A stretch of 64,000 nucleotides of DNA, from NCBI RefSeq assembly GCF_046119375.1, contig NW_027362764.1, positions 151,404,001 through 151,468,000 of the forward strand. Direction: 5' to 3'. Numbering within the stretch: the stretch's first letter is position 1; the number at the start of each line of letters is the position of its first letter. This DNA is from Phyllobates terribilis (taxonomy: Eukaryota). Below are positions 3,435-64,000 of this stretch, one piece after another. A program made the translations under genes and the position numbers. The notes under the pieces are model-generated. The model was given only the letters and a program-made list of their open reading frames with translations, did not search any database and was not told where the DNA came from.

Positions 3435-3454
3435 TATAACATAATACTGACATA

Positions 3455-5085: not shown

Positions 5086-5299
5086 TACATTTATGTACTG
5101 TCATTCTAGCTATAGTGTTTGTTTTTTGTTGTCAATTTTGTTATTTTTGTACCCACTAACAATCATCTAAAGCTGGGTACATAAAAGAGGGGGGTCTTTA
5201 GCAAAGATCAAATTTAATCCCTCCTCTTATTATTTCAGTTCTTTGCATGACTTACCTTCACAATCATAAGCTAACATTGTAGTTCCTCAATGGAGGATG

Positions 5300-8419: not shown

Positions 8420-8777
8420 TTAAGAAAATATTTGTATATGTATATATTTTATTAGTAAATGAAACATAAATTATGGTTTTGGCTGATATTTGTTCTATAT
8501 TACTCTTGTACCGTTTTAATAATTATTTTCATTTTAAAGTCGTTTAGATTAAAATAGAAAAACACTAAAAATTAAAATGAGCTAGTTAAACTCTGCCTAA
8601 TAACATAATAGTGTATCTATCACCATTTACTGTATGCTTTTTTAAATATACTGAACAATTGCATTAAAAATTATATTACCGTATTTTTCGGACTATAAGA
8701 CACACTTTTTTCCTCCAAAATTTTGGAGGAAAATGGGGGGTGCGCCTTATAGTCCGAATGTTGGGGGGGTGTATATA

Positions 8778-10404
<1,627 letters not shown>

Positions 10405-10571
10405 TATATGTGGGGTGTGGGGGGAGCGGTAGCGGTGGAGGAGCGGGGCACAGGAGACAGCAGCCGCCCACTGCAGCCTACACTGTCCCCGCTGCAAAAG
10501 AAAATGAATATTCACTGCTCCCCACGCCCATGGAGCATGGGGAGCACTGAATATTCATGCTCCTTAATAGC

Positions 10572-10974: not shown

Positions 10975-11670
10975 CATGATGGGGATTAGGAGGACCATGC
11001 ATACTAAGATTAGGATGAGGGGGCCATACATTCCAGGGTAAGGATGAGGGGGCCATACTTACCAGGGTAAGGATGAGGGGGCCATACATATCAGGGTAAG
11101 GATGAGGGGGGCCATATATACCAGGTTAACGCTGAGGGGGGTATACATACCAGGATAAAGATGAGGGGGCCATACATACCAGGATAATGCTGAGGGGGGC
11201 ATACATAACAGGATAAAGATGAGGGGGCCATACTTACCAGGATAACCCTGAGGGGTGCCATGCATACCAGGATTAGGATGAGGGGCCATACATACCAGGA
11301 TAAGGATGAGGGGTGTCATGCATACCAGTATTAAGGTGAGGGGCCATACATACCAGGATAGGGATTAGGGGTGTCATACATACCAGGACAGGGATTAGGG
11401 GTGCCATGCATACCAGGCCAGGGATGAGGGGTGCCATGCATGCCAGGATAGGGATGAGGGGTACCATGCATACCAGGACAGGGATGAGGGGTGCCATGCA
11501 TACCAGGATAGGGATGAGGGGTGCCATGCATAGCAGGATAGGGATGAGGGGTGCCATGCATACCAGGGTGGAGGGGTTCCATGCATACCAGGCTGGAGGG
11601 ATGCCAGGCATACCAGGATGGGGATGGAGACCACGTATAGAAGGAAGGGGGGGCATATATACCTGGATGG
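10975..11670. repeat. 29-30-bp minisatellite (CATGCATACCAGGATAGGGATGAGGGGTGC)n
   Basis: Periodicity is directly visible and explains the 10-aa periodic ORFs (MHTRIGMRGA, HPYPGMHGTP). Confidence 0.92.
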
Positions 11671-13162
11671 GGGATATTGTCAAAATTGGGGGACATTACC
11701 CCTATACCAGTGTCAGCAGAAGACCCCCCTCCCCCTTAAAAGTGCATCATGAACACATTTTTTGCTTACATTTTTTTTTTCCTCCTCTAAAACCTAGGTG
11801 CGTCTTATGGTCCGGTGCATCTTATAGTCCGAAAAATACGGTAACCCCCCCATTGCAAATTAGGTTTATTAGCAACATTTAACATTTTTCTGCTACTTCT
11901 AATAAACCAATAAAAAAGAAACAAAAAAAATTTAAATAGATCAGCAAAATTAATAACAAGTGTTTTTTTTATAAAACAAAAAAATGCCACTTTTGATGGG
12001 TACCACAGTCAGCCAGTGAAAAAAAAAGAGTACTCATCTCACTTGTTCCACCATTCCAGCCAGCCATCTAGTCCTCTGCACATCCAGTCCTTAATATATC
12101 CTATTTGGCCCTTCCGTCATCTTGGCTCAGTACCAAGGCCACATATTATGCACTCAACTTGTGAGGTGGATCCTCTAAGTCCATGTCCGGTGGGCACACA
12201 GATCCCGGTCGTTGATGCAGCAGGCAAATGAGGCACGTGGGAAGCAAGGACTAGAAGCACTGAAGGCTGCAGGCCAACAGGACACTGTAAAGCAGGTATG
12301 GAGCAGGTACTAGAAGCACTTGAAATTGCAGGCAGACAGAACACTGGAAAGCAGGCATGGAGCAGGTACTAGAAGCCTTGAAAACTGTAGGAAGACAAGG
12401 TGTCAGAAAGCAGATATGGAGCAGGTACTAGAAGCACTGGAGTTCGCAGTGAGACAGGAGATGGGAAAGCAGATATGGAGCAGGTACTAGAAGCATTGGA
12501 GTCTGCAGTGAGATAGGAGATGGGAAAGTAGGTATGGATCAGGTACTAGAAGCACTGTAGACTCCTGACAGAACACTGGAGAGCAGGTATGGAGAAGGTA
12601 CTAGAAGCACTGAAGGGCATAGTGAGACAGGACAAAGGAAAACTATAGGTCTTAATTAGTGTTGAGCCACCCCCGTAGTGTTCGAGTTCGGTTCGGTTCG
12701 TCGAACACCCGTGTGTTCGCCGAACTGTTCGTCGAACTGTTCGTTGAACACCTTCGAACACTGTTAAAACCAATGGCAGGCAAACAAAAACACATAGAAA
12801 CACATAGAAAACACCTTCAAAGGTGTCCAAAAGCTGACGAACTGCTCTGAAGACACAACTAACACATGGAAAAGTGACAAGTACATATAGTCATGCGAAA
12901 AGAAAAGAGGTGGAGGAGTAAAGGGAGGGGGAGACACAGATATAGGCATGTCATGCCCTTCTAAAATCCAAAAAGTGAGAAGCCGACACGTTCAGTCCGC
13001 TCCTGCCCGTGTCACCTCCGTGTCGCCGGGTTTGTGCCAGAGCCGCGGTGAACCCTGACGGCCAGCCCCCCTCTCCCAATACTGGTGCCTGTCCGCTGGT
13101 GGGTCGAGCGAGCCCCCCTGTGGTGGAGGCAACTCTAAGCTTTTTAATTTAAATTGTCTCTC

Positions 13163-13428
13163 TAATTTGAATGAATACACTTTAAATCCATTTACAAGGA
13201 TCTATTGGAGGGCAAGTCTCATGCCAGCAGCCGCGTAATTCCAGCTCCAGTAGCGTCCACTAAAGCTGCTGCAGTTAAAAAGCTTTTATAAGGATCGAGC
13301 TCGGTCGTCCACCGCAAGGCATCCTACTGCCAGTCCCAGCCCCTATGCTTTGGGGTGCCTCCTGATGCTCTTCACTGAGTATCCCGTGGTCCCGAAGCAT
13401 TTCCTTTGAAAAAATTAAGTGTCAAAAC
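13163..13428 (+). pseudogene. 18S rRNA fragment (helix 17-18 region into V4) carried in the hAT, copy A
   Basis: ACACTTTAAATCC..GGATCTATTGGAGGGCAAGTCT..TGCCAGCAGCCGCG-TAATTCCAGCTCCA..GCTGCAGTTAAAAAGCT, then GGATCGAGCT..GTCCCAGCCCCT..GATGCTCTT.ACTGAGT.TCCCG..CCCGAAGC.TTT.CTTTGAAAAAATTA. Matches recalled vertebrate 18S at roughly 80-90%. Confidence 0.9.
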
Positions 13429-13538
13429 TACAGGTGGTGTAGCTTGCTTAACAGCCGGGATAATCCGCTGACTAGCAGACACTGCTACTAGGCACAAAGT
13501 ATTTCCTGGGCTAGATGCAGTTAAAAATTTGTAATTAG

Positions 13539-15360
13539 ATACTCTCGTTGGATGCTGAGAAAGCATTCCATAGAGTCTCCTGGCACGCCATATATGATTC
13601 TCTTAAAAAGCTTGGGGTAGGGGTCTAGGGGACCCTTTTATAGCCAAAATCACGGCACTGTATCGCAATACGTCACCTAGGCTGAAGATAAATGGAACTG
13701 TATTACCCTGAGGGCTCGGTTGCTACAGAGGTATTGCACCTCACCCAGAGGTGTGATATCTCACTCTCAGGTAAGGATGGAGTGTGGATCAGGACCCGAC
13801 ACCTGCATGCATTACACCACATTGCCGTGGGGCAGGGCGACCAATATGCCCCTGAGATGGGCACGACAGTCCCTGTCCCTGGCTGGAGTGGGGGGAGGGA
13901 ACACTGAGGAAGGGGAACCCTGTAGTGCAGGAGCAGGGAGGAAGCAGTTACTGGGTGCATTGAGAAGGGAGTATAAAAGTTGGGCACCATCTTAGTTCAG
14001 TGCAGAGAAGTCTGAGCAGAAGTGGCAGGGAGCAGGGGCTCTGCATGAGCTCTGCTCCGGAGGCGGGCCTAGTAACAGAGGCCCAGGCCTGGAAGAGGGA
14101 GAAGGAAGGAAGAGGAGCGGAGAAGGCTCCAGGAACGAGGAACGAAGGGATCCTAGCGGTGCGGACGGGCGAGTCGCCACCGCACGCCCGAATCCACCTG
14201 CGTGGAGGGGTCAGGCCAAAGGGGGAGACCGGTTCCCGAAACTAGTGGAGGCAGGAAACGACCCTCAGCTAGAAACAGGAGGCTGTGACATTTTATGTGG
14301 CGCAGCCCCTCGCTACACCCGCTAGGAAGGCACCAGGGTCAGGGAAACTGGCGCCAAGTTTACCAAGAGGAGGCATGAGGCAGCCGGACAGAAGGGTTGG
14401 TAAGAAAGACCAGACAAAGGACACACAAAGGGGGTCCTGTGAAGCGCTCCAAAGTTATCTGGGAGTTGTCTGAGCCCCTCACCTGGTGAGCACAGTACGA
14501 AGTGGGCAGCCGTTACCTGCAGACTTGGTCTGGATAATAAGAACTGTGAGTAAAGGCCCTGGACTGCATCACTGACTCCGTGTCATTACAGCTGCTGCCC
14601 TGCACCATCACCCCCATCCTCCGCATACACTGCCCTGAGGCTATACTCCTCCCGTGGGGAGTTATGCTACGCTCTGCTGCACCCACAACACCAGCCTCAG
14701 CGGTCTGCCCTGGAGCGGCGGTTCACTCTGACCGCAATCCACGGGTGGCGTAGTCGGACATTTAAACATCAAAACCACATAAATAGTTCCGCCACTGGTT
14801 TGACCGCCCTGAGCCACGGAACCGGGTGGCCGCCACGGAGACTACAACCACCAGCATCCACCAAAAAGGGTCCGGCTCCGGGTGTCCCAAGGCCCAGGGG
14901 GCGCGTCAGAACATTTTCATCACCTTTCACAATCACCAATGGGACAAGGCAGGGATGTTCTCTGTCCCCTCTCTTATACATCCTAGTGACGGAGCACCTG
15001 CTCTCATCAATTCGCCATAACCCCAATATTAGGTGGATTGAGGTGGGAGGCACCGAGTACAAGTGCTCTCTATTTGCTGATGATGTCCTAGTATATATCA
15101 CTCAATCACATATATCCATCCATGCTGTTATGGCTGAAATAGATCACTTTGTTACATGGTTAAATTTTAAAATCAATGCAGCGAAGTCTGAGGCCCTCGA
15201 TGTCTCCCTCCCCAAATCCTTATAGGATTCCATCCAGTCCAACTTTCCCTTTGCCTGGCCCTCACAGGGTATCAAATACTTAGGAATTCCTATTCATAGA
15301 GACCTCTCCCATCTATGTTATCTTAATTTTGGGCCCTTTATTGAACAACTCCATACAGAC
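13539..15360 (+). pseudogene. L1 ORF2 reverse-transcriptase fragment interrupted by a solo LTR, copy A
   Basis: ILSLDAEKAFHRVSW..GLGDPFIAKITALY..KING, then the LTR, then TFSSPFTITNGTRQGCSLSPLLY..SLFADDVLVY..KINAAKSE..IKYLGI. Confidence 0.9.
13699..14908 (+). mobile_element. Solo LTR (1210 bp) inside the L1 fragment, copy A
   Basis: TGTA..GTCA termini, 4-bp TSD GAAC at 13695-98 and 14909-12, TATAAAA near 13972. Confidence 0.9.
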
Positions 15361-15430
15361 CACGGTTGGCAAGTTAGAACTGTAAGATTCACTACGTGAA
15401 CCACTGATGTTTTGTGGAAAAGCACATGTA

Positions 15431-16800
15431 CACTGTGTTCCAAATTATTATGCAAAAAGTGTTTAGGAGTGATAAGGGAAGAATTTGTTTGTTTGTCAGT
15501 TAAACTCATTGATGGTGATGTGTGTCAGGGCTCTTTATATCACTGTAAGCAATTGCAGACACCTGTGCTAATTAGTTTGGCAGGTGTGTCCAATGAAAGG
15601 CAAGACTACTTAAGAAGGCTGTCTCACATTATTAAGCAGCCTACATTTTCTGCCAAAATGGGAAAGAAAAAGGATGTGTCGGCTGCTGAGAAGCAACAAA
15701 TTGTGGAGTGTTTAGGTCAAGGCATGACTACAATCAACATTGTGCGATGATCAGGATGAAGTGTCTTGGCAATCAAGAAGTATGTAGCTGATTCACAGTA
15801 CACACGTGTGCGTGCTGATAAGGGCAAATTGAGGACTCTTTCCTACAGGCAATTATGTCAGGTTAAAAGAGCAGCGGCAAAAAAGCCTTGTCATAGCAGC
15901 AGACAAGTTTTTGAAGCTGCTGGTGCCTCCAACGTCCCCCGAACAACAAGATGCAGGGTCCTTCAGAGGTTTGCAGCTGTGCATACGCCATCCTGTCGAC
16001 CTCCTCTATCCACTTCACACAAGCAGAAACGGCTCCAGTGGGCCAAACATTACATGAAGACTGATTTCAAAACTGTTTTGTTCATGGATGAGTGCCGTGC
16101 AGCGCTCGATGGTCCAGATGGATGGAGTGGAGGATGGCTGGTTGATGGACACCCCACGCAAACACGGCTACAGCGCCAACAAGGAGGAGGTGGAGTAATG
16201 TTTTGGGCTGGAATCATGGGGAGAGAGATTGTCGGCCCCTTTAGGATCCCTGAAGGCGCTAAAGATGAACTCCATAATGTATGTGGATTTTCTCAAACAG
16301 CACTTCCTGCCATGGTTCAAGAAGAAGAACCGTGTATTTCACAGCAAGATCATTTTTCTGCATGATAATGCACCATGTCATGCTGCACATAAAACATCTG
16401 CATCTTTGGCTGATATGGGCATAAAAGGGGACAAACTTATGGTGTGACCCCCATGCTCCCCTGACCTCTACCCCATTCAGAACCTCTGGAGCATCATCAA
16501 AAGGAGTGTCTATGATGGTGGGAGGCAGTTCACATCTAAGCAACAGCTCTGGGAGGGTATTCTGTCCTCATGCAAAACAATTGAAGCAGAAACCATCCAA
16601 AACCTGACAAATTCAATGGACGAGAGAGTTCAGAAGCTCCTTTCGAACAAGGGGTCCTATGTGAAAATGTAACATCACCTAGAATAAAGTTTTGAGTTGA
16701 AAACTGTTTGATTTCAGTTTCTAATAACCTGCTAATGCTTATAATTTCAAAAATGGCCATTTTTTTGGTCTTTATTAAAATGAAAAGGTTGATCGAAAAG
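15431..16800 (+). mobile_element. 3'-truncated DD37E (TRT-type) Tc1/mariner with decayed transposase (15658-16672), copy A
   Basis: TA then TIR CACTGTGTTCCAAATTATTATGCA. MGKKKDV start, LFMDECRAALDGPDGW, and 37 residues from HD(NAP) to the former E (now Q). Frameshifts and stops. Inserted at a TA within a hAT transposase fragment. Confidence 0.88.
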
Positions 16801-17239
16801 TTTGGGGGATCTAAGAGTGTGGCAACCCAGTAGTCATGATTACTTCGAATTCTGACAATATGAGGATCATGTTGCAGGTAGTGCAGCAAGAAGGCACTTA
16901 TGTGTCTTGCGCATCTCGGAGCCCCAAAATTATTTTCCGGGCTAGATGCAGCTAAAAATTATTATTAATTTTAAATCTGGTGGAGCTTAGTATAGATGGC
17001 CTAATAGGATCAGTGCTGCACACTTCTACAAAGCCCAAATTATTTTCCAGCCAAGATACAGATAAACATGATTAGTAATTTTAAATCTGGTGGAGCTTAT
17101 TATAGATGGACTAATAGAATCAGTGCTGCACACTGCTACAAAGCCCAAATTATTTTCCAGCCAAAATACAGATAAACATGATTAGTAATTTGAAAGCTTA
17201 AAACGGTTGGTAGGGAGATTTTAACCAATCATCCATCTT

Positions 17240-18904
17240 TTACTCTCCCCAGGATGACACACGGGTAGAAAAGTCGTTTCGGATCCATGATTTGTTCATA
17301 TTTATGAACGTGAGTCTGTCTACATTATCAGTGGAGAGCCGCGTGCGCTTATCTGTCAGCACACCACCAGCAGCGCTGAACACACGTTCAGACAGAACGC
17401 TGGCTGCGGGGCATGACAAGATCTCCAAGGTGTAAGTGGCTAGCTCCGGCCATTTATCCAGATTGGAAGCCCAAAAAGAGCAAGGGTCCAGTGACACAGT
17501 CATGGCTTCAATGTTTACTTGGAGATACTCCTGTACCATCGTCTCTAGGCGTTGACTATGTGTCAGACTTCTTATCTCCTGTGGCCTTGCAAAGGATGGG
17601 CTAAAAAAGTGGTGAAATGATTGCGCAAAATTGATGTTACCAGCAGATACTGTGGTTCTGTTATGGTTTGAGTGCTGAACACTTGACGGTCCCACGGTTG
17701 GCAAGTTGGAACTGTGAGATTCACTACGTGCACCACTGGTGTTTTGTGGAAAAGCACATGTAAGATTCTGCAACAGTCTCTGCTGATACTCCTGCATGCG
17801 TGCATCCCTTTCTATGGCAGGAATAATTTCTGTAAATTTACTTTTGTACCGGGGATCTAACAGTGTGGCAACCCAGTAGTCAGGATTATTTCTAATTCTC
17901 ACAATTCGAGGGTCATGTTGCAGGTAGTGCAGCAAGAAGGCACTCATGTGTGTTGCGCATCCAGGAGCACTAAGTCCCTGTTGTGTTGGTGGCGAGGTAA
18001 CAATCATGCTTCCTTCCTCTGTCCTCTCCCCCCAACCTCGCACAACAGAAATGTGATCAAGGTCTCCCTCATCTGATGAGTCTTCCATCAGTTCGTCCTC
18101 CACTTCTTCCTGGGCTCCTGCACCTTCCTCACTAGTTTGGCTGCTACCATGCGCCCTGGTAAAACCATCTCCCCCACCCTCACATGCCTGCCGCCTTGGT
18201 GCTGCCGACCGTCTGGACCTTGCAGATGTTAGCCCTTCCGCATACAACTCCTCCTCCTCTACTTCCTCCACCTCCTCTTGTGCCACCACCTGACTCCGAA
18301 TTCTGTTTAACATGTGCTCCAGCATGTAAATCACCAGAATAGTCATGCTGATAATGGCATCGTCAGCACTAAACATCTTTGTCGCCATTTCAAAACTGTG
18401 CAGAAGGGTGCATAGGTCCCTGATCTGAGACCACTCCTCCAGCGTGATTTGTCCCACGTCTGGACCTCGTTGGCCCAGGCTATACGTCAGAACGTATTGC
18501 ACCAGGGCTTGTCGGTGATGCCACAGTCGCTGCAACATGTGCAGAGTTGAATTCCACCGGGTAGGCACATCGCATTTTAGCCGGTGAAGTGGCAGGCCCA
18601 ACGACTTCTGTAGAGATCTGAGTCGCTGAGCTGCGGGATGCGAACGGCGGAAGTGAGCACACAGCGACCGTGCCCTCTGCAGAAGGCCATCTAGTCTGGG
18701 ATAGTGGGCTAAAAATTGCTGGACAACCAGGTTCAACACGTGAGCCATACAAGGCACGTGTGTGACATTGCCCCGGCGAAGGGCCGCACCCAGGTTTGCA
18801 GCATTGTCGCACACGGCCTTCCCTGGTTTCAGGTCCAGTGGAGACAACCATTCATGAAATTGGTTCTCCAGAGCTGACCACAACTCCTCAGCTGTGTGAC
18901 TCAC
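17240..18904 (-). CDS. C-terminal half of the hAT transposase (554 aa open frame) with catalytic E and dimerisation domain
   Basis: AVCDNAANL, CMAHVLNL (CxxH), PTRWNS, YWVATLLDPRYK, WPELATYTLEILSCPAASVLSERVFS..RTRLS. Upstream TAG near 18921 and truncation at 18972 by a second hAT end. Confidence 0.92.
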   Translation of the reverse strand: MSHTAEELWSALENQFHEWLSPLDLKPGKAVCDNAANLGAALRRGNVTHVPCMAHVLNLVVQQFLAHYPRLDGLLQRARSLCAHFRRSHPAAQRLRSLQKSLGLPLHRLKCDVPTRWNSTLHMLQRLWHHRQALVQYVLTYSLGQRGPDVGQITLEEWSQIRDLCTLLHSFEMATKMFSADDAIISMTILVIYMLEHMLNRIRSQVVAQEEVEEVEEEELYAEGLTSARSRRSAAPRRQACEGGGDGFTRAHGSSQTSEEGAGAQEEVEDELMEDSSDEGDLDHISVVRGWGERTEEGSMIVTSPPTQQGLSAPGCATHMSAFLLHYLQHDPRIVRIRNNPDYWVATLLDPRYKSKFTEIIPAIERDARMQEYQQRLLQNLTCAFPQNTSGARSESHSSNLPTVGPSSVQHSNHNRTTVSAGNINFAQSFHHFFSPSFARPQEIRSLTHSQRLETMVQEYLQVNIEAMTVSLDPCSFWASNLDKWPELATYTLEILSCPAASVLSERVFSAAGGVLTDKRTRLSTDNVDRLTFINMNKSWIRNDFSTRVSSWGE

Positions 18905-19466
18905 ATTTCCCAGACATTTCTAAGTAAAAACCGCCTGATGACGTTGAGCCCTACTGCCAGCATAGTAAGGAGTAGTGTTGAGCCACCCCCGTAGTGTTCG
19001 AGTTCGGTTCGGTTCGTCGAATACCCGTGTGTTCGCCGAACTGTTCGTCGAACACCTTCGAACACCGTTAAAACCAATGGCAGGCAAACAAAAACACATA
19101 GAAACACATAGAAAACACCTTCAAAGGTGTCCAAAAGCTGACAAACTGCTTAGAAGACACAACTAACACATGGAAAAGTGACAAGTACATATAGTCATGC
19201 GAAAAGAAAAGAGTTGGAGGAGTAAAAGGAGGGGGAGACACAGATATAGGCATGTCATGACCTTCTAAAATCCAAAAAGTGAGAAGCCGACACGTTCAGT
19301 CCGCTCCTGCCCGTGCCACCTCCGCGTCGCCGGGTTTGTGCCAGAGCCGCGGTGAACCCTGACGGCCAGCCCCCCTCTCCCAATACTGGTGCCTGTCCGC
19401 TGGTGGGTCGAGCGAGCCCCCCTGTGGTGGAGGCAGCTCTAAGCTTTTTAATTTAAATTGTCTCTC

Positions 19467-19731
19467 TAATTTGAATGAATACACTTTAAATCCATTTACA
19501 AGGATCTATTGGAGGGCAAGTCTCATGCCAGCAGCCGCGTAATTCCAGCTCCAGTAGCGTCCACTAAAGCTGCTGCAGTTAAAAAGTTTTAAAAGGATCG
19601 AGCTCGGCTGTCCACCGCAAGGCATCCTACTGCCAGTCCCAGCCCCTATGCCTTGGGGTGCCTCCTGATGCTCTTCACTGAGTATCCCGTGGTCCCGAAG
19701 CATTTCCTTTGAAAAAATTAAGTGTACAAAC
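19467..19731 (+). pseudogene. 18S rRNA fragment, copy B
   Basis: Near-identical to 13163-13428. Confidence 0.9.
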
Positions 19732-19841
19732 TACAGGTGGTGTAGCTTGCTTAACAGCCGGGATAATCCGCTGACTAGCAGACACTGCTACTAGGCACAA
19801 AGTATTTCCTGGGCTAGATGCAGTTAAAAATTTGTAATTAG

Positions 19842-21668
19842 ATACTCTCGTTGGATGCTGAGAAAGCATTCCATAGAGTCTCCTGGCACGCCATATATTG
19901 ATTCTCTTAAAAAGCTTGGGGTAGGGGTCTAGGGGACCCTTTTATAGCCAAAATCACGGCCCTGTATCGCAATACGTCACCTAGGCTGAAGATAAATGGA
20001 ACTGTAGCACCCTGAGGGCTCGGTTGCTACAGAGGTATTGCAACTCACCCAGAGGTGTGATATCTCACTCTCAGGTAAGGATGTAGTGTGGATCAGGACC
20101 CGACACCTGCATGCATTACACCACATTGCCGTGGGGCAGGGCGACCAATATGCCCCTGAGATGGGCACGACAGTCCCTGTCCCTGGCTGGAGTGGGGGGA
20201 GGGAACACTGAGGAAGGGGAACCCTGTAGTGCAGGAGCAGGGAGGAAGCAGTTCCTGGGTGCATTGAGAAGGGAGTATAAAAGGTGGGCACCATGTTAGT
20301 TCAGTGCAGAGAAGTCTGAGCAGAAGTGGCAGGGAGCAGGGGCTCTGCATGAGCTCTGCTCCGGAGGTGGGCCTAGTAACAGAGGCCCAGGCCTGGAAGA
20401 GGGAGAAGGAAGGAAGAGGAGCGGAGAAGACTCCAGGAACGAGGAACGAAGGGATCTCAGGGGTGCGGACGGGCGAGTCGCCACCGCACGCCCGAATCCA
20501 CCTGCGTGGAGGGGTCAGGCCAAAGGGGGAGACCGGTCCCCGAAACTAGTGGAGGCAGGAAACGACCCTCAGCTAGAAACAGGAGGCTGTGACATTTTAT
20601 GTGGCGCAGCCCCTCGCTACACCCGCTAGGAAGGCACCACATAGGGTCAGGGAAACTGGCGCCAAGTTTACCAAGAGGAGGCCCGAGGCAGCCGGACAGA
20701 AGGGTTGGTAAGAAAAGCCAGACAAAGGACACACAAAGGGGGTCCTGTGAAGCACTCCAAAGTTATCTGGGAGTTGTCTGAGCCCCTCACCTGGTGAGCA
20801 CAGTACGACGTGGGCAGCCGTTACCTGCAGACGTGGTCTGGATAATAAGAACTGTGAGTAAAGGCCCTGGACTGCATCACTGACTCCGTGTCATTACTGC
20901 TGCTGCCCTGCACCATCACCCCCATCCTCCGCATACACTGCCCTGAGGCTATACTCCTCCCGTGGGGAGTTATGCTACGCTCTGCTGCACCCACAACACC
21001 AGCCTCAGCGGTTTGCCCTGGAGCGGCGGTTCACTCTGACCGCAATCCACGGGTGGCGTAGTCGGACATTTAAACATCAAAACCACATAAATAGTTCCGC
21101 CACTGGTTTGACTGCCCTGAGCCACGGAACCGGGTTGCCGCCACGGAGACTACAACCACCAGCATCCACCAAAAAGGGTCCGGCTCCGGGTGTCCCAAGG
21201 CCCAGGGGGCGCGTCAGAACATTTTCATCACCTTTCACAATCATCAATGGGACAAGGCAGGGATGTTCTCTGTCCCCTCTCTTATACATCCTAGTGACGG
21301 AGCACCTGCTCTCATCAATTCGCCATAACCCCAATATTAGGTGGATTGAGGTGGGAGGCACCGAGTACAAGTGTTCTCTATTTGCTGATGATGTCCTAGT
21401 ATATATCACTCAATCACATATATCCATCCATGCTGTTATGGCTGAAATAGATCACTTTGTTACATGGTCAAATTTTAAAATCAATGCAGCGAAGTCTGAG
21501 GCCCTCGATGTCTCCCTCCCAAAATTCATATAGGATTCCATCCAGTCCAACTTTCCCTTTGCCTGGCCCTCACAGGGTATCAAATACTTAGGAATTCCTA
21601 TTCATAGAGACCTCTCCCATCTATGTTATCTTAATTTTGGGCCCTTTATTGAACAACTCCATACAGAC
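19842..21668 (+). pseudogene. L1 RT fragment interrupted by a solo LTR, copy B
   Basis: Same peptide motifs and breakpoints as 13539-15360 (ORF 21108-21533 includes NGTRQGC and FADD). Confidence 0.9.
20003..21216 (+). mobile_element. Solo LTR, copy B
   Basis: TGTAGCACC..GCGCGTCA with TSD GAAC at 19999-20002 and 21217-20. Confidence 0.9.
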
Positions 21669-21738
21669 CACGGTTGGCAAGTTAGAACTGTAAGATTCAC
21701 TACGTGAACCACTGGTGTTTTGTGGAAAAGCACATGTA

Positions 21739-23108
21739 CACTGTGTTCCAAATTATTATGCAAAAAGTGTTTAGGAGTGATAAGGGAAGAATTTGTTTGT
21801 TTGTCAGTTAAACTCATTGATGGTGATGTGTGTCAGGGCTCTTTATATCACTGTAAGCAATTGCAGACACCTGTGCTAATTAGTTTGGCAGGTGTGTCCA
21901 ATGAAAGGCAAGACTACTTAAGAAGGCTGTCTCACATTATTAAGCAGCCTACATTTTCTGCCAAAATGGGAAAGAAAAAGGATGTGTCGGCTGCTGAGAA
22001 GCAACAAATTGTGGAGTGTTTAGGTCAAGGCATGACTACAATCAACATTGTGCGATGATCAGGATGAAGTGTCTTGGCAATCAAGAAGTATGTAGCTGAT
22101 TCACAGTACACACGTGTGCGTGCTGATAAGGGCAAATTGAGGACTCTTTCCTACAGGCAATTACGTCAGGTTGAAAGAGCAGCGGCAAAAAAGCCTTGTC
22201 ATAGCAGCAGACAAGTTTTTGAAGCTGCTTGTGCCTCCAACGTCCCCCGAACAACAAGATGCAGGGTCCTTCAGAGGTTTGCAGCTGTGCATACGCCATC
22301 CTGTCGACCTCCTCTATCCACTTCACACAAGCAGAAACGGCTCCAGTGGGCCAAACATTACATGAAGACTGATTTCAAAACTGTTTTGTTCACGGATGAG
22401 TGCCATGCAGCGCTCGATGGTCCAGATGGATGGAGTGGAGGATGACTGGTTGATGGACACCCCACGCAAACACGGCTACAGCGCAAACAAGGAGGAGGTG
22501 GAGTAATGTTTTGGGCTGGAATCATGGGGAGAGAGATTGTCGGCCCCTTTAGGATCCCTGAAGGCGCTAAAGATGAACTCCATAATGTATGTGGATTTTC
22601 TCAAACAGCACTTCCTGCCATGGTTCAAGAAGAAGAACCGTGTATTTCACAGCAAGATCATTTTTCTGCATGATAATGCACCATCTCATGCTGCACATAA
22701 AACATCTGCATCTCTGGCTGATATGGGCATAAAAGGGGACAAACTTATGGTGTGACCCCCATGCTCCCCTGACCTCTACCCCATTCAGAACCTTTGGAGC
22801 ATCATTTAAAGGAGTGTCTATGATGGCGGGAGGCAGTTCACATCTAAGCAACAGCTCTGGGAGGGTATTCTGTCCTCATGCAAAACAATTGAAGCAGAAA
22901 CCATCCAAAACCTGACAAATTCAATGGACGAGAGAGTTCAGAAGCTCCTTTCGAACAAGGGGTCCTATGTGAAAATGTAACATCACCTAGAATAAAGTTT
23001 TGAGTTGAAAACTGTTTGATTTCAGTTTCTAACAACCTGCTAATGCTTATAATTTCAAAAATGACCATTTTTTTGGTCTTTATTAAAATTAAAAGGTTGA
23101 TCGAAAAG
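21739..23108 (+). mobile_element. 3'-truncated DD37E (TRT-type) Tc1, copy B (decayed transposase 21966-22980)
   Basis: Same TIR, TA site and truncation point as 15431-16800. Confidence 0.88.
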
Positions 23109-26100
23109 TTTGGGGGATCTAAGAGTGTGGCAACCCAGTAGTCATGATTACTTCGAATTCTGACAATATGAGGGTCATGCTGCAGGTAGTGCAGCAAGAA
23201 GGCACTTATGTGTGTTGCGCATCCAGGAGCACCAAGTCCCTGTTGTGTTCGTGGCGAGGTAACAATCATGCTTCCTTCCTCTGTCCTCTCCCCCCAACCT
23301 CGCACAACAGAAATGTGATCAAGGTCTCCCTCATCTGATGAGTCTTCCATCAGTTCGTCCTCCACTTCTTCCTGGGCTCCTGCAACTTCCTCACTAGTTT
23401 GGCTGATACCATGCGCCCTGGTAAAACCATCTCCCCCACCCTCACATGCCTGCCGCCTTGGTGCTGCCGACCGTCTGGACCTTGCAGATGTTAGCCCTTC
23501 CGCATACAACTCCTCCTCCTCTACTTCCTCCACCTCCTCTTGTGCCACCACCTGACTCCGAATTCTGTTTAACATGTGCTCCAGCATGTAAATCACCGGA
23601 ATAGTCATGCTGATAATGGCATCGTCAGCAATAAACATCTTCGTCGCCATTTCAAAACTGTGCAGAAGGGTGCATAGGTCCCTGATCTGAGACCACTCCT
23701 CCAGCGTGATTTGCCCCACCTCTGGATCTCGTTGGCCCAAGCTATACGTCAGAACGTATTGCACCAGGGCTTGTCGGTGCTGCCACAGTCGCTGCAACAT
23801 GTGCAGAGTTGAATTCCACCGGGTAGGCACATCGCATTTTAGCCGGTGAAGTGGCAGGCCCAACGACTTCTGTAGAGATGTAAGTCGCTGAGCTGCGGGA
23901 TGCGAACGGCGAAAGTGAGCACACAGCGACCGTGCCCTCTGCAGAAGGCCATCTAGTCTGGGATAGTGGGCTAAAAATTGCTGGACAACCAGGTTCAACA
24001 CGTGAGCCATACAAGGCACGTGTGTGACATTGCCCCGGCGAAGGGCCGCACCCAGGTTTGCAGCATTGTCGCACACGGCCTTCCCTGGTTTCAGGTCCAG
24101 TGGAGACAACCATTCATGAAATTGGTTCTCCAGAGCTGACCACAACTCCTCAGCTGTGTGACTCACATTTCCCAGACATTTCAATGTAAAAACCGCCTGA
24201 TGACGTTGAGCCCTACTGCCAGCATAGTAAGGAGGTGTGCAGGATCCCTTCTGCGCAGTTAGAAAGCTTGTGGCATGACCAGACAGGCTTTGGGTGCAGG
24301 TGGAGGACCGAGAGGAGGTTGAGGAGGCAGAAGCAGTGGAGGAACTTTGACATAAAGAGGATTGACGCACAACTCGTGGGGACGGCAAGACTTGGACAGC
24401 AGCCCCTTGTCCTGCTGTCACCATAGTTACCCAGTGCCCAGTCAGCGACATGTAACGCCCCTGTCCATGCCTACTCGTCCAAGTGTCTGTGGTGAAATGC
24501 ACCCTGTCACACACAGAGTTTCTCAAAGAAGCGGTGATGTTGTGTGCGACATGCTGGTGGAGCGCAGGCACACCTTTCTTTGAGAAGTAGTGCCGACTGG
24601 GCATCTGGTACTGGGGCACTGAGACGGACATAAGGTCTCGAAAATCCTCTGTGTCCACCAGGCGGAAAGGCAGCATTTCTGTAGCCAAGAGCTTGCAGAT
24701 GGTGAAATTCAACCTCTTAGCTTTCTCATGGCTAGGAGGAAATGGTCTTTTACTTGTCCACATCTGAGGGACCGAGGGCTGGCTATTGTGCTTAGACGGG
24801 GTTGATAAGGGTGTCCCCGGCAAACTGCCGGTCTGTGAGGAAGATGCAGGCGGACATGTTAGGTTGCCTTGATCCAAAGGTGGTGCTATCGATGTCGGAC
24901 AGCGCTCAACACCAGCTGGTGTTACCACCTCCAAAGAAAATGATGACCTGCCAATCACGCTGGCTGTTGCAGGTAAAGAGGTGGCAGGTCTGCGCCCCAA
25001 AACAGGTGTGACTGCTGTCCCCCCAGTCACAGAGGATGAAGAGGCCGCGGATGCACAAGATATGGCAGACGGTGGTTGGCCCGGCCGGCTAGGCCGCATT
25101 GTAGCACACTGAGCTTCCCACTGCAACTTATGCTTCATGTCCATGTGCCGGTTCATGCATGAAGTACTCAAACTATGTATTTTTTGGCCTCTACTTAGCT
25201 TTTGCTGACAAATGTTACAGATAACACGAGTTGGGTCATCTTTATCGATCTGAAAAAATGCCCAGGCTATGCAAGGCTTAGCACCCAAGCGACCTGAAGA
25301 GCCACCACGACTTGTGGTGAGAGGCAGAGTTGTGTTTGAGGATGCAGTTGTTGACGTGCTTCCAGTACTACGTCTCTGTCCAGGAAGGCGCAACCTGACC
25401 TCGTCGTCACTAGCATCTTCCTCCACCTCCTCTGCTGACCTCATCTCTTGGCTGACTGTGGGTTGACAGTAAGTGGGATCTCCAACCTCATCATCATCAC
25501 CCTGTGCATTATCACACCCGTCGTCCTCAGAGCCAACCTGTTCCTGCCCTGACAAAAAACTAAAGTTGTCGCTCCAATCAGGAATTTGAGTCTTATCATC
25601 GTCTTCCTCATTGTCTCCACCAACAGGAGCTACAGTTTGGGAATGAGGGTCTACATTATGGTCAGAACCTTCTGCGTCTGGTCCTGGATCCGACTCATAA
25701 AGATTCTGGGCATCAGTGCAGATCATTTCCTCGTCTGGATTCACAGAAGAGCTGGAGTCGACCTCTGATTCCCAGGCTATAGTATGAGTAAACAGCTCTG
25801 CAGACTCAACCATCTGTTCTACCTCATACTCAGACGGGCAGCTGGAGATTTGGGAGCTGTGAGGAAGCAAGTGCGATTGGGGTGACACCTTTGAGGACTG
25901 GAGTATTTGTGATGATGAAGTTGATGTGGAGGAGAGCCCACTTAAAGGAGCACTTGATATCCGTTGAAGCACCTGCTGTTTTTGTGCCTCATCTGGAATT
26001 TGTAGCGATTGGCGTGGCCGTAAGAAAGGGATCTTATCACATTGTCCGCTAAAAGAAGTAGACATTTTAGTTTGGCTGGAAGATGGTCTTTCTTCTGCAG

Positions 26101-26203
26101 ATGTTACTGTTGCTTTAACACCTACCCCACGGACACAACCTTTTTTCCCCTTCCCAACACGCCTATTCCCCTTTCCACCAGCAGCAGGCCTTTTTCCACT
26201 CAT
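22844..26203 (-). CDS. BED-finger hAT transposase, aa 1-1030, fused in frame to 89 aa read from the antisense TRT sequence; lacks catalytic E and dimerisation domain
   Basis: Basic N-terminus, acidic/Ser-rich region, BED finger (AWAFF..CNIC..RHMDMKH), VPQYQMPSRHYF, FTTDTWTS, AVCDNAANL, CMAHVLNL, PTRWNS. Homology ends at YWVATLLDP (23114). Confidence 0.93.
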   Translation of the reverse strand: MSGKRPAAGGKGNRRVGKGKKGCVRGVGVKATVTSAEERPSSSQTKMSTSFSGQCDKIPFLRPRQSLQIPDEAQKQQVLQRISSAPLSGLSSTSTSSSQILQSSKVSPQSHLLPHSSQISSCPSEYEVEQMVESAELFTHTIAWESEVDSSSSVNPDEEMICTDAQNLYESDPGPDAEGSDHNVDPHSQTVAPVGGDNEEDDDKTQIPDWSDNFSFLSGQEQVGSEDDGCDNAQGDDDEVGDPTYCQPTVSQEMRSAEEVEEDASDDEVRLRLPGQRRSTGSTSTTASSNTTLPLTTSRGGSSGRLGAKPCIAWAFFQIDKDDPTRVICNICQQKLSRGQKIHSLSTSCMNRHMDMKHKLQWEAQCATMRPSRPGQPPSAISCASAASSSSVTGGTAVTPVLGRRPATSLPATASVIGRSSFSLEVVTPAGVERCPTSIAPPLDQGNLTCPPASSSQTGSLPGTPLSTPSKHNSQPSVPQMWTSKRPFPPSHEKAKRLNFTICKLLATEMLPFRLVDTEDFRDLMSVSVPQYQMPSRHYFSKKGVPALHQHVAHNITASLRNSVCDRVHFTTDTWTSRHGQGRYMSLTGHWVTMVTAGQGAAVQVLPSPRVVRQSSLCQSSSTASASSTSSRSSTCTQSLSGHATSFLTAQKGSCTPPYYAGSRAQRHQAVFTLKCLGNVSHTAEELWSALENQFHEWLSPLDLKPGKAVCDNAANLGAALRRGNVTHVPCMAHVLNLVVQQFLAHYPRLDGLLQRARSLCAHFRRSHPAAQRLTSLQKSLGLPLHRLKCDVPTRWNSTLHMLQRLWQHRQALVQYVLTYSLGQRDPEVGQITLEEWSQIRDLCTLLHSFEMATKMFIADDAIISMTIPVIYMLEHMLNRIRSQVVAQEEVEEVEEEELYAEGLTSARSRRSAAPRRQACEGGGDGFTRAHGISQTSEEVAGAQEEVEDELMEDSSDEGDLDHISVVRGWGERTEEGSMIVTSPRTQQGLGAPGCATHISAFLLHYLQHDPHIVRIRSNHDYWVATLLDPPNFSINLLILIKTKKMVIFEIISISRLLETEIKQFSTQNFILGDVTFSHRTPCSKGASELSRPLNLSGFGWFLLQLFCMRTEYPPRAVA

Positions 26204-26299
26204 TTTGGTGGTTAACTAATTCACAACTCTGGAGTTGTTTGCACAAAAAAACAATGGATGGGAACCGAGCAGAGCTGAGTGGCCAAACTGTGGTATTAG

Positions 26300-28355
26300 G
26301 CCAAAACTATTGGCTGGGTTAGATGCAGAAAAAAATTATATTCAATTTGCAACCTGATGGAGGTCAGTATAGATGGACTAATAGAACAAGTCCCACACAC
26401 AGCTAGAAGCCCAAATATTTTTTCAGAGGTAGATGCAGAAAAAAATATATTCAGTTTGCAACCTGATGGAGGTCAGTATAGATGGACTAATAGAGAAAGT
26501 CCCACACACTGCTAGAAGGCCAAATATTTTTTCAGAGCTAGATGCAGACAAGAAATTATTTTGAATTTGCAACCTGATGGAGGTCAGTATAGGTGGACTA
26601 ATAGAACAAGTCCCACACACTGCTAGAAGGCCAAATATTTTTTCAGAGCTAGATGCAGAAAAAAATTATATTCAGTTTGCAACCTGATGGAGGTCAGTAT
26701 AGATGGACTAATAGAGAAAGTCCCACACACTGCTAGAAGGCCAAATATTTTTTCAGAGCTAGATGCAGAAAAAAATTATATTCAGTTTGCAACCTGATGG
26801 AGGTCAGTATAGATGGACTAATAGAGAAAGTCCCACACACTGCTAGAAGGCCAAATATTTTTTCAGAGCTAGATGCAGAAAAAAATTATATTCAGTTTGC
26901 AACCTGATGGAGGTCTGTATAGATGGATTAATAGAACAAGTCCCACACACAGCTAGAAGCCCAATATTTTTTCAGAGGTAGATGCAGAAAAAAATATATT
27001 CAGTTTGCAACCTGATGGAGGTCAGTATAGATGGACTAATACAACAAGTCCCACACACAGCTAGAAGCCCAATATTTTTTCAGAGCTAGATGCAGAAAAA
27101 AATTATATTCAATTTGCAACCTGATGGAGGTCAGTATAGATGGAGTAATAGAACAAGTCCCACACACATCTAGAAGCCCAAATATTTTTTCAGAGCTAGA
27201 TGGAGATAAAAATTATTTTTAATTTGCAACCTGATGGAGGTCAGTATAGATGGACTAATAGAGAAAGTCCCACACACTGCTAGAAGGCCAAATATTTTTT
27301 CAGAGCTAGATGCAGAAAAAAATTATATTCAGTTTGCAACCTGATGGAGGTGTGTATAGATGGATTAATAGAACAAGTCCCACACACAGCTAGAAGCCCA
27401 ATATTTTTTCAGAGGTAGATGCAGAAAAAAATATATTCAGTTTGCAACCTGATGGAGGTCAGTATAGATGGACTAATACAACAAGTCCCACACACAGCTA
27501 GAAGCCCAATATTTTTTCAGAGCTAGATGCAGAAAAAAATTATATTCAATTTGCAACCAGATGGAGGTCAGTATAGATGGAGTAATAGAACAAGTCCCAC
27601 ACACAGCTAGAAGCCCAAATATTTTTTCAGAGCTAGATGCAGATAAAAATTATTTTTAATTTGCAACCTGATGGAGGTCAGTATAGATGGACTAATAGAG
27701 AAAGTCCCACACACTGCTAGAAGACCAAATATTTTTTCAGAGCTAGATGCAGAAAAAAATTATATTCAGTTTGCAACCTGATGGAGGTCTGTATAGATGG
27801 ATTAATAGAACAAGTCCCACACACAGCTAGAAGCCCAATATTTTTTCAGAGGTAGATGCAGAAAAAAATATATTCAGTTTGCAACCTGATGGAGGTCAGT
27901 ATAGATGGACTAATGCAACAAGTCCCACACACAGCTAGAAGCCCAATATTTTTTCAGAGCTAGATGCAGAAAAAAATTATATTCAATTTGCAACCTGATG
28001 GAGGTCAGTATAGATGGAGTAATAGAACAAGTCCCACACACAGCTAGAAGCCCAAATATTTTTTCAGAGGTAGATGCAGAAACAAATTATATTCAGTTTG
28101 CAACCTGATGGAGGTCTGTATAGATGGATTAATAGAACAAGTCCCACACACAGCTGCAAGCCCAATATTTTTTCAGAGGTAGATGCAGAAAAAAATATAT
28201 TCAGTTTGCAACCTGATGGAGGTCAGTATAGATGGACTAATAGAGAAAGTCCCACACACTGCTAGAAGGCCAAATATTTTTTCAGAGCTAGATGCAGAAA
28301 AAAATTATATTCAATTTGCAACCTGATGGAGGTCAGTATAGATGGACTAATAGAA
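26300..28355. repeat. Tandem array of 19 x 108-111-bp units in the hAT 5' region, with a 4-unit (437-bp) higher-order repeat
   Basis: AACCTGATGG recurs at 26351, 26460, 26571, 26681, 26791, 26901, 27009, 27118, 27228, 27338, 27446, 27555 (AACCAGATGG), 27665, 27775, 27883, 27992, 28102, 28210 and 28320. Confidence 0.95.
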
Positions 28356-29637
28356 TGATGCTATGCCCAAAAGATTTTACTTCACTAGGTGCAGTAAAAA
28401 AATTGGTATTCTATACACAGGTGGTATATCTTGCAACACAGATAGGCTACTCCACTGACTAACACACTCTGCAATAGGCCAAAAAGGATTAGCTTTGCTA
28501 GATTCAGCCAAATGCTGTGAAAAAAACTTGCACAGCACTGGCACAGACCTGCCTGGCAAAAACTGATAGGAACTGATGTAACCTAGTCCTGAAAAGGACT
28601 CCAATTACAATTAGTCTTTACTCCCACAACCTATCTATTTAAGAGCACAGACCTGCCTGATAAAAGTCGTAGGAAATGCTGTAACCTAGTCCTTAAAAGG
28701 ACTGCAATCACAACTATTCCCTACTCCCAAGCTATCTGTAGATTTGTGCGAAAATTGGCTTGAAATTAACAAGGTATAGCGGACACAGCAACAGCGGTGC
28801 CGTCTAACACGCAGCTGCAGCAGTGAGAAAATGGTGGCGACGGGGAAAATGGCTTGGTCTTATAGGGCAAGGACATGTGACATACACTGCCAATGACACA
28901 TGCCCTTGCTTGTGTGAAAAAAAGCACTTCGCTCCGTGTGAGCGCTGCTGATAGGCTGACAGATTGCACCTCCCCACTGTAAATGCGGGAAAGAGAAAAA
29001 AAAATGTAGATCTTCATTATTCCTGCAGAGATCCATCCCCTGCCCCTCCCCCCACCCCGCTGTACACTCAAACTGCGTATTAACATTAATTTACATCATT
29101 ACTGAGAAAAAATCCAGTTATGATTTTGGTGCACGAACAGTTATCGAACATAACCTCGAACAGCCGAATTTTTCTCAAATCGTTCGTGTTCGCCGAACGG
29201 CTTGAACACCGCCCAAAACAGCTCGAATTTGAGATTGGCGAACAGTTCGAGTAGAACAACGCTCATCTCTAGTCTTAATACCAAGACACAGGTGTGTATT
29301 ATGGTGAGCGTTATATAAGCCTAGGCAAAAAATCAAATGGGAGCACACTGGGCCACTTGCAAAACCTGGTGTGGAGCACAGCAGAGAGCAGCGACCATAG
29401 GAGAAAGTGATGAAGCCCTGCCAAGCCGGAACAGAGGCATAACACCTCAGGAGTCAATACTCAGATAGTAATGTCTAAAACCTATAGTGTTAAGTGAAGG
29501 TAATGGTAGAGCAAAATAGGATTCTCAGACAACTGAATGCACAGTATATCAGATGGGAGGCTGCCATGACAGAACAGTTGAGCGTCAAGGTATTTTCTTT
29601 TCACCCATATTTACTATGCTCTGCTTTGTTGACTAGC

Positions 29638-31660: not shown

Positions 31661-32182
31661 AGGAGGTGTCCAACTTTGGGGACAATTTTTTCTACTTAAA
31701 TGCATGCAAATAGACAAGCATTTTTTCAACTGAATTTTATTAAAAATTTTGCACTGTTTCTCTCCTATGGCCACTGTATTACACTGTCTATTGCTGGATG
31801 CAGAATGAGGTAATGGGGTTGGCCACATTATGTTTGTGTTGGAGACATGATTTTGTGACACTTACTATTATGAATGCATAACAGGTTCTCCTCCGGCTCT
31901 TGTTAGTGCAGCTTTCCTCACAAACTGCACAGCTCTGCAGTCCATATAATGGCTACTGGTGGAGGAGCATGTGACCAAACCTGTCCGTCAGTCTCCTCCA
32001 ATAGAAAAGCAGTTTTCTCATGTATGGTTTTCAATTGGAGAAGACTGATGGACAGGTCTGGTCACATGCTCCTCTACAAGCAGCCATTGTATGAACTGGA
32101 GAGCTGTGCAGTCTGTGAAGAAAGATGCACTAACAAGAAAAGTAAATAAGAAATAAATTGTCCACAAAGGTGGGCAACCCCT
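31661..32182. mobile_element. TTAA-flanked T2/Kolobok-type MITE
   Basis: TTAA then AGGAGGTGTCCAACTTTG; CAAAGGTGGGCAACCCCT then TTAA. Internal imperfect inverted repeats. Confidence 0.55.
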
Positions 32183-56073: not shown

Positions 56074-56081
56074 GGAAGAGC

Positions 56082-62323: not shown

Positions 62324-62791
62324 TAGTGTTGAGCCACCACCGTAGTGTTCGAGTTCGGTTCGGTTCGGTTCATCGAACACCCGTGTGTTCGCCGAACTGT
62401 TCGTCGAACACCTTCGAACACCGTTAAAACCAATGGCAGGCAAACAAAAACACATAGAAACACATAGAAAACACCTTCAAAGGTGTCCAAAAGCTGACAA
62501 ACTGCTCAGAAGACATAACTAACACGTGGAAAAGAGACAAGTACATATAGTCATGCGAAAAGAAAAGAGGTGGAGGAGTAAAAGGAGGGGGAGACACAGA
62601 TATAGGCATGTCATGCCCTTCTAAAATCCAAAAAGTGAGAAGCCGACACGGCCAGTCCGTTCCTGCCCGTGCCACCTCCGTGTCGCCGGGTTTGTGCCAG
62701 AGCCGCAATACTGGTGCCTGTCCGCTGGTGGGTCGAGCGAGCCCCCCTGTGGTGGAGGCAGCTCTAAGCTTTTTAATTTAAATTGTCTCTC

Positions 62792-63036
62792 TAATGAATA
62801 CACTTTAAATCCTTTTACAAGGATCTATTGGAGGGCAAGTCTCATGCCAGCAGCCGCGTAATTCCAGCTCCAGTAGTGTCCACTAAAGCTGCTGCAGTTA
62901 AAAAGCTTTTATAAGGATCGAGCTTGGCTGTCTACCACAAGTCAAAGCCCCTATGCCTTGGGGTGCCTCCTGATGCTCTTCACTGAGTATCCCGTGGTCC
63001 CGAAGCATTTCCTTTGAAAAAATTAAGTGTCCAAAC
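62792..63036 (+). pseudogene. 18S rRNA fragment, copy C (small internal deletion)
   Basis: Same sequence as copies A and B with a deletion near 62940. Confidence 0.88.
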
Positions 63037-63325
63037 TACAGGTGGTGTAGCTTGCTTAACAGCCGGGATAATCCGCTGACTAGCAGATTACTAGCTGACT
63101 AGCAGACACTGCTACTAGGCACAAAGTATTTCCTGGGCTAGATGCAGTTAAAAATTTGTAATTAGATACTCTCGTTGGATGCTGAGAAAGCATTCCATAG
63201 AGTCTCCTGGCACGCCATATATTATTCTCTTAAAAAGCTTGGGGTAGGGGTCTAGGGGACCCTTTTATAGCCAAAATCACGGTCCTGTATCGCAATACGT
63301 CACCTAGGCTGAAGATAAATGGAAC

Positions 63326-64000
63326 TGTAGCACCCTGAGGGCTCGGTTGCTACAGAGGTATTGCACCTCACCCAGAGGTCTGATATCTCACTCTCAGGTA
63401 AGGATGGAGTGTGGATCAGGACCCGACACCTGCATGCATTACACCACATTGCCGTGGGGCAGGGTGACCAATATGCCCCTGAGATGGGCACGACAGTCCA
63501 TGTCCCTGGCTTGAGTGGGGGGAGGGAACACTGAGGAAGGGGAACCCTGTACTGCAGGAGCAGGGAGGAAGCAGTTCCTGGGTGCATAGAGAAAGGAGTA
63601 TAAAAGGTGGGCACCTTCTTAGTTCAGTGCAGAGAAGTCTGAGCAGAAGTGACAGGGAGCAGGGGCTCTGCATGAGCTCTGCTCCGGAGGCGGGCCTAGT
63701 AACAGAGGCCCAGGCCTGGAAGAGGGAGAAGGAAGAGGAGCGGAGAAGGCTCCAGGAACAAGGAACGAAGGGATCCCAGGGGTGCGGACGGGCGAGTCGC
63801 CACCGCACGCCCGAATCCACCTGCGTGGAGGGGTCAGGCCAAAGGGGGAGACCGGTCCCCGAAACTAGTGGAGGCGGGAAACGACCCTCAGCTACACCCG
63901 CTAGGAAGGCACCACATAGGGTCAGGGAAACTGGCGCCAAGTTTACCAAGAGGAGGCCTGAGGCAGCCGGACAGAAGGGTTGGTAAGAAAGGCCAGACAA
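63326..64000 (+). mobile_element. LTR inside the L1 fragment, copy C (truncated by the window end)
   Basis: GAAC then TGTAGCACCCTGAGGG, the same insertion site as copies A and B. Confidence 0.88.

Follow-up and report, generated by a model that had tools for sequence, protein, structure and literature searches.

A doubled copy of an oversized, debris-laden hAT element in a contig of Phyllobates terribilis

Elements of the hAT superfamily of the Hermes and Ac kind share short imperfect terminal inverted repeats (TIRs), subterminal repeats, and an 8-bp duplication at the target site (TSD) with the form nTnnnnAn, which is the target preference of Hermes (PMC10368747), and hATs are typically 2.5-5 kb in length (PMC2874221). 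All of these features except the usual length, together with the BED finger, catalytic core and dimerisation domain of hAT transposases, are found in a 16,615-bp composite block at 12657-29271 of a 64,000-nucleotide stretch of Phyllobates terribilis contig NW_027362764.1 (assembly GCF_046119375.1, forward strand, positions 151,404,001 to 151,468,000), referred to here as the window and numbered from its first letter. The block contains two left ends and a single right end, and it probably arose by nesting of two copies of one family, whose repeated unit we infer to be an 11.35-kb hAT with its own Hermes-like transposase gene, as opposed to the 16.6-kb block itself. With an 8-bp TSD conforming to nTnnnnAn, a short TIR (5-27 bp in hATs) with subterminal repeats, and BED, DDE and dimerisation domains, the element is a hAT, and length is the only feature outside the quoted range, which is descriptive and not diagnostic (11,353 bp for the inferred master, 16,615 bp for the composite). 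The sequence-only reading of this DNA had proposed a cargo-carrying hAT far larger than a typical element, and this holds for the master of about 11.35 kb. The consensus differs from usual hATs in that foreign scraps take up about 4 kb of it and an internal array a further 2 kb, and its transposase would be about 1233 aa in length, as opposed to 612 aa in Hermes.

Composite structures of similar size have been described for Ac, where a whole element and a one-ended fractured partner (fAc) lie inside suitably oriented outer ends, and where excision of a 17.2-kb composite as a macrotransposon has been reported (10.1101/2020.08.10.245175; PMC3744419). In the Ac/fAc accounts the ends are reversed and host DNA is carried, whereas here the ends lie head to tail and the added sequence comes from the element itself. 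Another example is the tandems of hobo and P, which are described as arising by double insertion, giving head-to-tail neighbours of one family through transposition, with junctions that often lose terminal sequence (10.1101/158386). Unlike those dimers, the present junction runs from a terminus to a position inside the transposase gene, and some 5 kb, with the right end, is missing from the first unit. Maize Sesqui-Ds are one-and-a-half elements with three ends, which derive from inverted nested Ds and break chromosomes; in the present block, as opposed to these, the orientation of the ends is standard.

The closest systems in terms of cargo are the Pack-TIRs and Pack-MULEs, which likewise have foreign sequence between TIRs, multiple copies and distinct flanks. 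In the Pack-TIR study, hATs are given as the commonest carrier, three of the four multicopy reference cases are from frogs, and membership is defined by internal non-TE (non-transposable element) sequence with a unique parental copy at at least 90% identity (PMC8277862). Three to five copies are reported there (PMC8277862), and copy number here appears far higher. The present cargo is mostly TE debris, its sole host-derived piece being about 0.3 kb of degenerate 18S rRNA, and the element keeps a transposase gene; since the cargo is mostly TE-derived, the element is not filed under Pack-TIRs, and the Pack-type label of the sequence-only reading is mostly not supported. ToxhAT was considered as a precedent for a large hAT and dropped, as it has been reclassified as Tc1/mariner (PMC12506042).

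Ends, target sites and the two units

The features that define the block and its two units are as follows.

12649..12656, plus strand: left TSD, GTCTTAAT, conforming to nTnnnnAn
12657..12975, plus strand: left end of unit 1, which is the 3' end of the element with respect to the transposase; TIR at 12657-12667, subterminal TTCG/CGAA; inner boundary approximate
16805..16927, minus strand: repeat B1, a scrap of a related transposase gene, 90% identical to 17851-17968
18965..18972, plus strand: internal target 8-mer, GTAAGGAG, abutting the second left end; equal to 24227-24234 in the uninterrupted gene and fitting nTnnnnAn
18973..23112, plus strand: left end of unit 2 and second full cargo copy (LTR 20003-21216, L1 21221-21667, Tc1 21741-23112)
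23113..23235, minus strand: chimeric B1/B2 repeat (B3), marking a 1046-bp deletion by which the transposase C-terminus was lost from unit 2
28356..29271, plus strand: right end, the element's 5' end; 103-bp doublet at 28541-28729, TIR at 29261-29271
29272..29279, plus strand: right TSD, GTCTTAAT
62324..64000, plus strand: third copy of the family, with a left end, the 18S and L1 scraps and the start of the long terminal repeat (LTR); its flanking 8-mer, GTATCCAG, differs, and the copy leaves the window

As the sequence-only reading had claimed, a single exact TSD surrounds the whole structure: the plus strand of the window has GTCTTAAT at exactly two sites, 12649-12656 and 29272-29279, and the block lies flush between them. 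An exact 8-mer match of this kind is expected by chance at 2e-5, or at 3e-4 when the target preference for T at position 2 and A at position 7 is allowed for. Its placement of two left ends and one right end also stands; the left ends at 12657 and 18973 both begin TAGTGTTGAGC and are alike at 44 of the 44 bases compared, and the sole right end in the block, read on the minus strand from 29271, begins TAGAGATGAGC. The TIR is 11 bp in length, with left and right matching at 9 of 11 positions, and the TTCG/CGAA motif reaches densities of 8.3 and 5.8 per 100 bp at the two ends, as opposed to 0.33 in the interior (about 18-25 fold).

The second left end begins exactly after GTAAGGAG, and after that 8-mer the gene resumes in frame at 24235. 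Seven distinct 8-mers next to element ends were examined in the window, the one at the internal junction included, and all conform to nTnnnnAn, against a background of 6.5-7.3%. Since the second left end stands exactly at such a target within the transposase gene, the 18972/18973 junction was most probably made by transposase. A tandem duplication made without transposase, by template switching or ectopic repair, that ended by chance at the TIR would have company in other template-switch-like patches in the element (scraps of the 110-bp unit and of transposase genes), but the junction falls at the first TIR base after a target motif that is found at 6.5% of gene positions and has only AG in common with the flank of the third copy, and this origin is considered very improbable.

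The two units align as 12657-16927 with 18973-23235 (71 differences in 4258 columns) and as 17851-18972 with 23113-24234 (26 differences in 1122 columns). Unit 1 is without the last ~5 kb, right end included, and unit 2 lacks 1046 bp between two direct repeats of about 120 bp, the surviving repeat being a mosaic of both. In a three-way comparison, units 1, 2 and 3 have 20, 15 and 27 private differences in 1648 columns, which is a star-like pattern. Differences between the units in the coding region (6 synonymous and 10 nonsynonymous in 332 codons) are uninformative.

Reads from four of 24 listed sequencing runs (X1, X5, X6 and X10) were compared with 11900-18972, and 33 of the 40 variant rows listed (445 in all) were used in an allele test, three rows in the flank and four in the segment missing from unit 2 being excluded. 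In 25 of the 33 rows unit 1 has a rare allele; one of these sites falls in a gap of unit 2, and at each of the 24 that can be aligned unit 2 carries the majority letter. The other eight sites are polymorphic in the family; unit 2 equals unit 1 at four (all in the LTR), differs at three (all non-CpG), and is ambiguous in alignment at one. These comparisons of sequence favour units 1 and 2 as independent copies, though a duplication just after insertion would still be compatible.

Misassembly of two haplotypes was proposed as the condition that would overturn the composite, and a misjoin of two non-allelic copies may be considered with it. Members of the family are about 98% identical and of very high copy, and flank contigs from other samples depart from the window at 3 of 185 letters and at 3 of ~250 (about 1-2%), so that haplotype divergence is not small and divergence alone does not speak against haplotypes. 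On the other hand, a misjoin within homologous sequence cannot set the start of a TIR directly behind an nTnnnnAn 8-mer of the gene; the units are also distinguished by the columns given above and by a 1-kb deletion and have no rare alleles in common, and the window contains no N letters. An artefact of this kind is therefore given very little weight.

Origin of the doubled form

The preferred reading, at a probability of roughly 0.6, is a nested insertion in the same orientation, followed either by loss of the inner right end in place or by movement of the block between the outer left end and the inner right end as a unit. As a first step, an autonomous-type hAT would have collected debris in its 3' subterminal region, namely the 18S piece, the L1 piece with its solo LTR, and the related-transposase scraps with Tc1; the parts are present in the block, and their order of arrival is presumed. 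The loaded master of ~11.35 kb would then have multiplied to very many copies by cut-and-paste transposition. In a second step, a second copy would have entered the transposase gene of a first at GTAAGGAG in the same orientation, giving the order L1-X1-L2-X2-E2-R2-E1-R1 (L1 and R1, L2 and R2 being the left and right ends of the first and second copies). From this intermediate, the tandem E-R repeats may have recombined in place, with loss of the inner right end and the inner TSD, a route that has somewhat less than an even chance; or transposase may have paired the left end of the first copy with the right end of the second, so that the block would have moved here as a macrotransposon with a fresh TSD, which is the more doubtful of the routes. 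The sequence-only reading had left movement as a unit and rearrangement in place side by side, and the single TSD, being compatible with both, cannot decide between them. The loss of 1046 bp from unit 2 would be a separate event.

Several points weigh against nesting. The nested intermediate was not observed, and no inner TSD survives. The joint from 18972 to 12657 and the empty allele are both absent among the joints listed, with 304 joints and 3321 loose ends (an incomplete count) lying beyond the listing, so that this is no evidence either way; the B1/B2 deletion joint is likewise absent among the rows listed, again with no evidence either way. The identity of units 1 and 2 at four of the eight polymorphic sites fits a common source copy equally, and the allele test rests on 33 of 40 listed rows from a total of 445. 

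The shared alleles bear on hybrid-element insertion, in which ends of the copies on two sister chromatids, the left end from one and the right end from the other, would leave together and enter the allelic copy at GTAAGGAG; 12657-18972 would in this way be duplicated in place in one step, with the original TSD retained. Such an event accounts for the three ends (two left, one right), for the single TSD and for a junction that conforms to the motif, and it requires no further deletion; the units also agree at four of eight polymorphic sites. Hybrid element insertion and alternative transposition are known for P and Ac, according to the account in PMC3744419. Against this, none of 24 rare unit-1 alleles is shared (upper 95% bound ~12%), and the three non-CpG polymorphic differences need gene conversion or recurrence; hybrid-element insertion agrees with these data only if it followed directly upon the arrival of the element, and it is judged unlikely.

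The 11-kb master, its cargo and its transposase

Joined by coordinates, 12657-18972 and 24235-29271 give an element of 11,353 bp. Its cargo, transposase gene and internal repeats are as follows.

13104..13467, plus strand: degenerate 18S rRNA scrap, unit 1 (Rfam RF01960, 69.1 bits, gathering 50; best-matching core ~13160-13420)
19408..19770, plus strand: 18S scrap, unit 2 (Rfam RF01960, 67.6 bits, gathering 50)
13476..13540, plus strand: scrap like the element's own 110-bp repeat unit and like 28427-28507 (blastn 72-88%)
13545..15359, plus strand: reverse-transcriptase (RT) scrap, which we take to be of L1 type from its motifs, split by a solo LTR (RVT_1 3e-14; left part by translation)
13699..14908, plus strand: solo LTR, TG...CA, 1210 bp; 4-bp duplication GAAC at 13695-13698 and 14909-14912
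15360..15430, minus strand: scrap of a related hAT transposase gene, 94% identical to 17692-17762
15433..16804, plus strand: Tc1-like element, one-ended, after TA, with a broken transposase (HTH_Tnp_Tc3_2)
16927..17195, plus strand: 110-bp repeat, 2.4 copies
17240..18972, minus strand: 3' part of the transposase gene, unit 1 (559-aa open frame at 17240-18919, hAT dimerisation domain)
23113..26203, minus strand: 5' part of the transposase gene (1030 codons open from an ATG at 26203; BED finger and catalytic core)
26320..28355, plus strand: 110-bp tandem array, 18.6 copies, ~2 kb, upstream of the transposase gene

The rRNA, LINE, LTR and Tc1 pieces that had been read inside the block are all present, and each of the four types (18S, L1, solo LTR, Tc1) occurs twice. 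Apart from the ~0.3-kb 18S piece, whose alignment has many mismatches against the Rfam model, the cargo is TE-derived, and no RNA family other than 18S was significant within the block. The limits of the solo LTR are confirmed by contigs of X1, X5 and X6 in which 13694 is joined to 14909, with 1214 letters skipped and four in common; such contigs may derive either from free L1 copies or from LTR-less copies of the hAT. The two Tc1 copies match HTH_Tnp_Tc3_2 at 4e-5 and 7e-5, both under the Pfam cut-off, no right TIR was found for the piece at 15433..16804, and the two related-transposase scraps (94% and 90%) enclose this one-ended element. While the earlier description of ends and cargo was right, it overlooked the minus-strand transposase gene, the 2-kb array of 110-bp repeats and the third copy at 62324-64000. 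At position 16923, other letters precede in many contigs of all four runs, which is consistent with the 110-bp unit in other contexts or with variants of the family.

The transposase matches Pfam profiles zf-BED (3.6e-10) and Dimer_Tnp_hAT (1.2e-14), its best matches in the PDB are Hermes chains (1e-19), and its second D, CxxH, RW and E motifs align with those of Hermes; the motif TTDTW, which is conserved in its relatives, is presumably catalytic. The nearest protein found is from Ranitomeya variabilis (80% identity across 449 aa), and the relatives of the transposase are anuran 'ZBED4/6-like' proteins, the other 26 of the 27 matches including frog and gecko. These matches point to a frog host, probably close to the poison frogs. 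Neither unit has an intact open reading frame: unit 1 has a private stop just upstream of the 559-aa frame and lacks the 5' part, and unit 2 is without the C-terminus, so that any movement of the block would depend on transposase supplied by other copies. The two open parts overlap, and their lengths place them in a single frame of 1234 codons including the stop (about 1233 aa), which suggests an intact master, although no such copy was seen. In frogs, the gene models P0017, P0014 and P0025 contain a transposase of the same kind under host gene names or fused to MINDY-3, fibronectin III or C2, and these are probably annotation artefacts.

The cargo order of the third copy at 62324 is that of units 1 and 2, and its different flanking 8-mer, together with the flat high depth described here, indicates that the cargo belongs to the family master and not to this locus. 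Among the 24 listed runs, eight runs of organism A, which come from two studies and cover three samples, contain 0.79-0.86 of the sequence words, and 12 runs under seven other organism labels contain 0.53-0.58. The median summed depth over 27 element bins is 1.7, 2.2 and 1.9 million in X1, X5 and X6, against 5.3, 11.2 and 16.5 in the first flank bin; contig depth is even across ends, cargo and transposase and is ~10^5 times that of the flank in the three samples. A worst-case correction, with a factor of 31 to allow for overlapping k-mers and a factor of 2 in case the flank is haploid, leaves ~1,900-5,300, which sets a floor of about 2,000. Logan abundances are capped, and the depth plateau may reflect this cap. 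Two points count against a very abundant 11.35-kb master, in that summed contig depth is not copy number, and in that the master is a reconstruction by coordinates whose comparison with reads extends over 11900-18972 only.

In X10, which is from organism C, eight long contigs tile unit 1 in order, with depths of 45-67 in 17 cargo bins and normal depth across the segment deleted in unit 2, and a contig of depth 64 extends 718 letters beyond 18972, with no piece of that contig listed on the left end. These consensus-like contigs with almost no flank fit a relative or trace DNA. The tiling and the contig that passes 18972 point to unit 1 with the gene continuing as the usual form of the family, which would run on into 24235-29271. 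The 16.6-kb block claimed as an element is therefore real as a block but is not the normal form of the family. It might still represent a small amplified subfamily, with several two-unit copies and different TSDs; the exact TSD abuts both outer termini and the family tolerates large size, but the X10 contig passes 18972 with no turn into a left end, left-end depth in X10 is not doubled, which leaves a minority at most, and the window has no second two-unit copy. Such a subfamily is improbable.

Metagenome scans gave no exact matches to the left end, and of 43 pattern matches none was confirmed by tblastn. The literature searches listed no printed description of such an element; Repbase, Dfam and supplementary TE libraries, which were outside this search, may hold the family, perhaps in fragments.

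Genomic surroundings and significance

The remainder of the window is also rich in repeats. At 1096-1242 there is a right end, 148 bp in length, which belongs to the same family or a close one (92.6%) and is followed by CTGCTCAC; it is adjoined at 1238-1471 by a piece that resembles the 3' terminus of the cargo LTR (75%). Minisatellites of 30 bp (10983-11567) and 59 bp (12243-12611) lie directly left of the insertion, and the raised depth of the 59-bp array (88-1415) indicates that this array is itself multicopy. A comparison of the left and right flanks of the block did not show them to be halves of one repeat. Further hAT-like families whose TIRs are related have ends at 59566 and 41179-41291, each next to an nTnnnnAn 8-mer, and MITE-like palindromes occupy 39183-41291 and 31898-32138. 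There are also three Tc1/mariner-like elements, all with long TIRs, at 3453-5087, 8773-10409 and 46123-47732, the second with a transposase frame open for 360 aa. An LTR retrotransposon at ~49172-57095 has LTRs of ~1.0 kb that are 94.9% identical and broken protease, RT and RNase H frames on the minus strand, and a 944-aa open frame at 32860-35694 (minus strand) has the endonuclease and RT domains of a LINE ORF2 and is strongly G-skewed.

In anurans, hAT abundance has been associated with genome size, with 1.1 Gb of hAT sequence in one dendrobatid (PMC12822217), and the repeat accounts of frog genome papers give hAT totals by superfamily and describe no such element in those passages (PMC6278860, PMC11152451, PMC12822217). 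It is tentatively proposed that one autonomous 11-kb hAT master with fossil L1, LTR, Tc1 and 18S pieces may be present in tens of thousands of copies and account for a considerable fraction of a large frog genome, that part of the apparent 'recent LINE, LTR, Tc1 and rRNA-pseudogene activity' in the repeat landscape of such a genome may be passenger DNA, and that nested copies may re-mobilise as macrotransposons of 16-17 kb. If one oversized hAT does carry retroelement, Tc1 and 18S scraps in many copies, homology-based repeat annotation would split it among five classes and misattribute genome growth. Engineered Tol2 is reported to be less efficient beyond 10 kb (PMC2874221), and the oversized element would be a natural test of the size tolerance of hATs. 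The doubled 16.6-kb locus taken alone is a modest case of known alternative-transposition behaviour and a derivative of a known kind; of greater interest is the 11-kb master, which is oversized, laden with debris and apparently very abundant.

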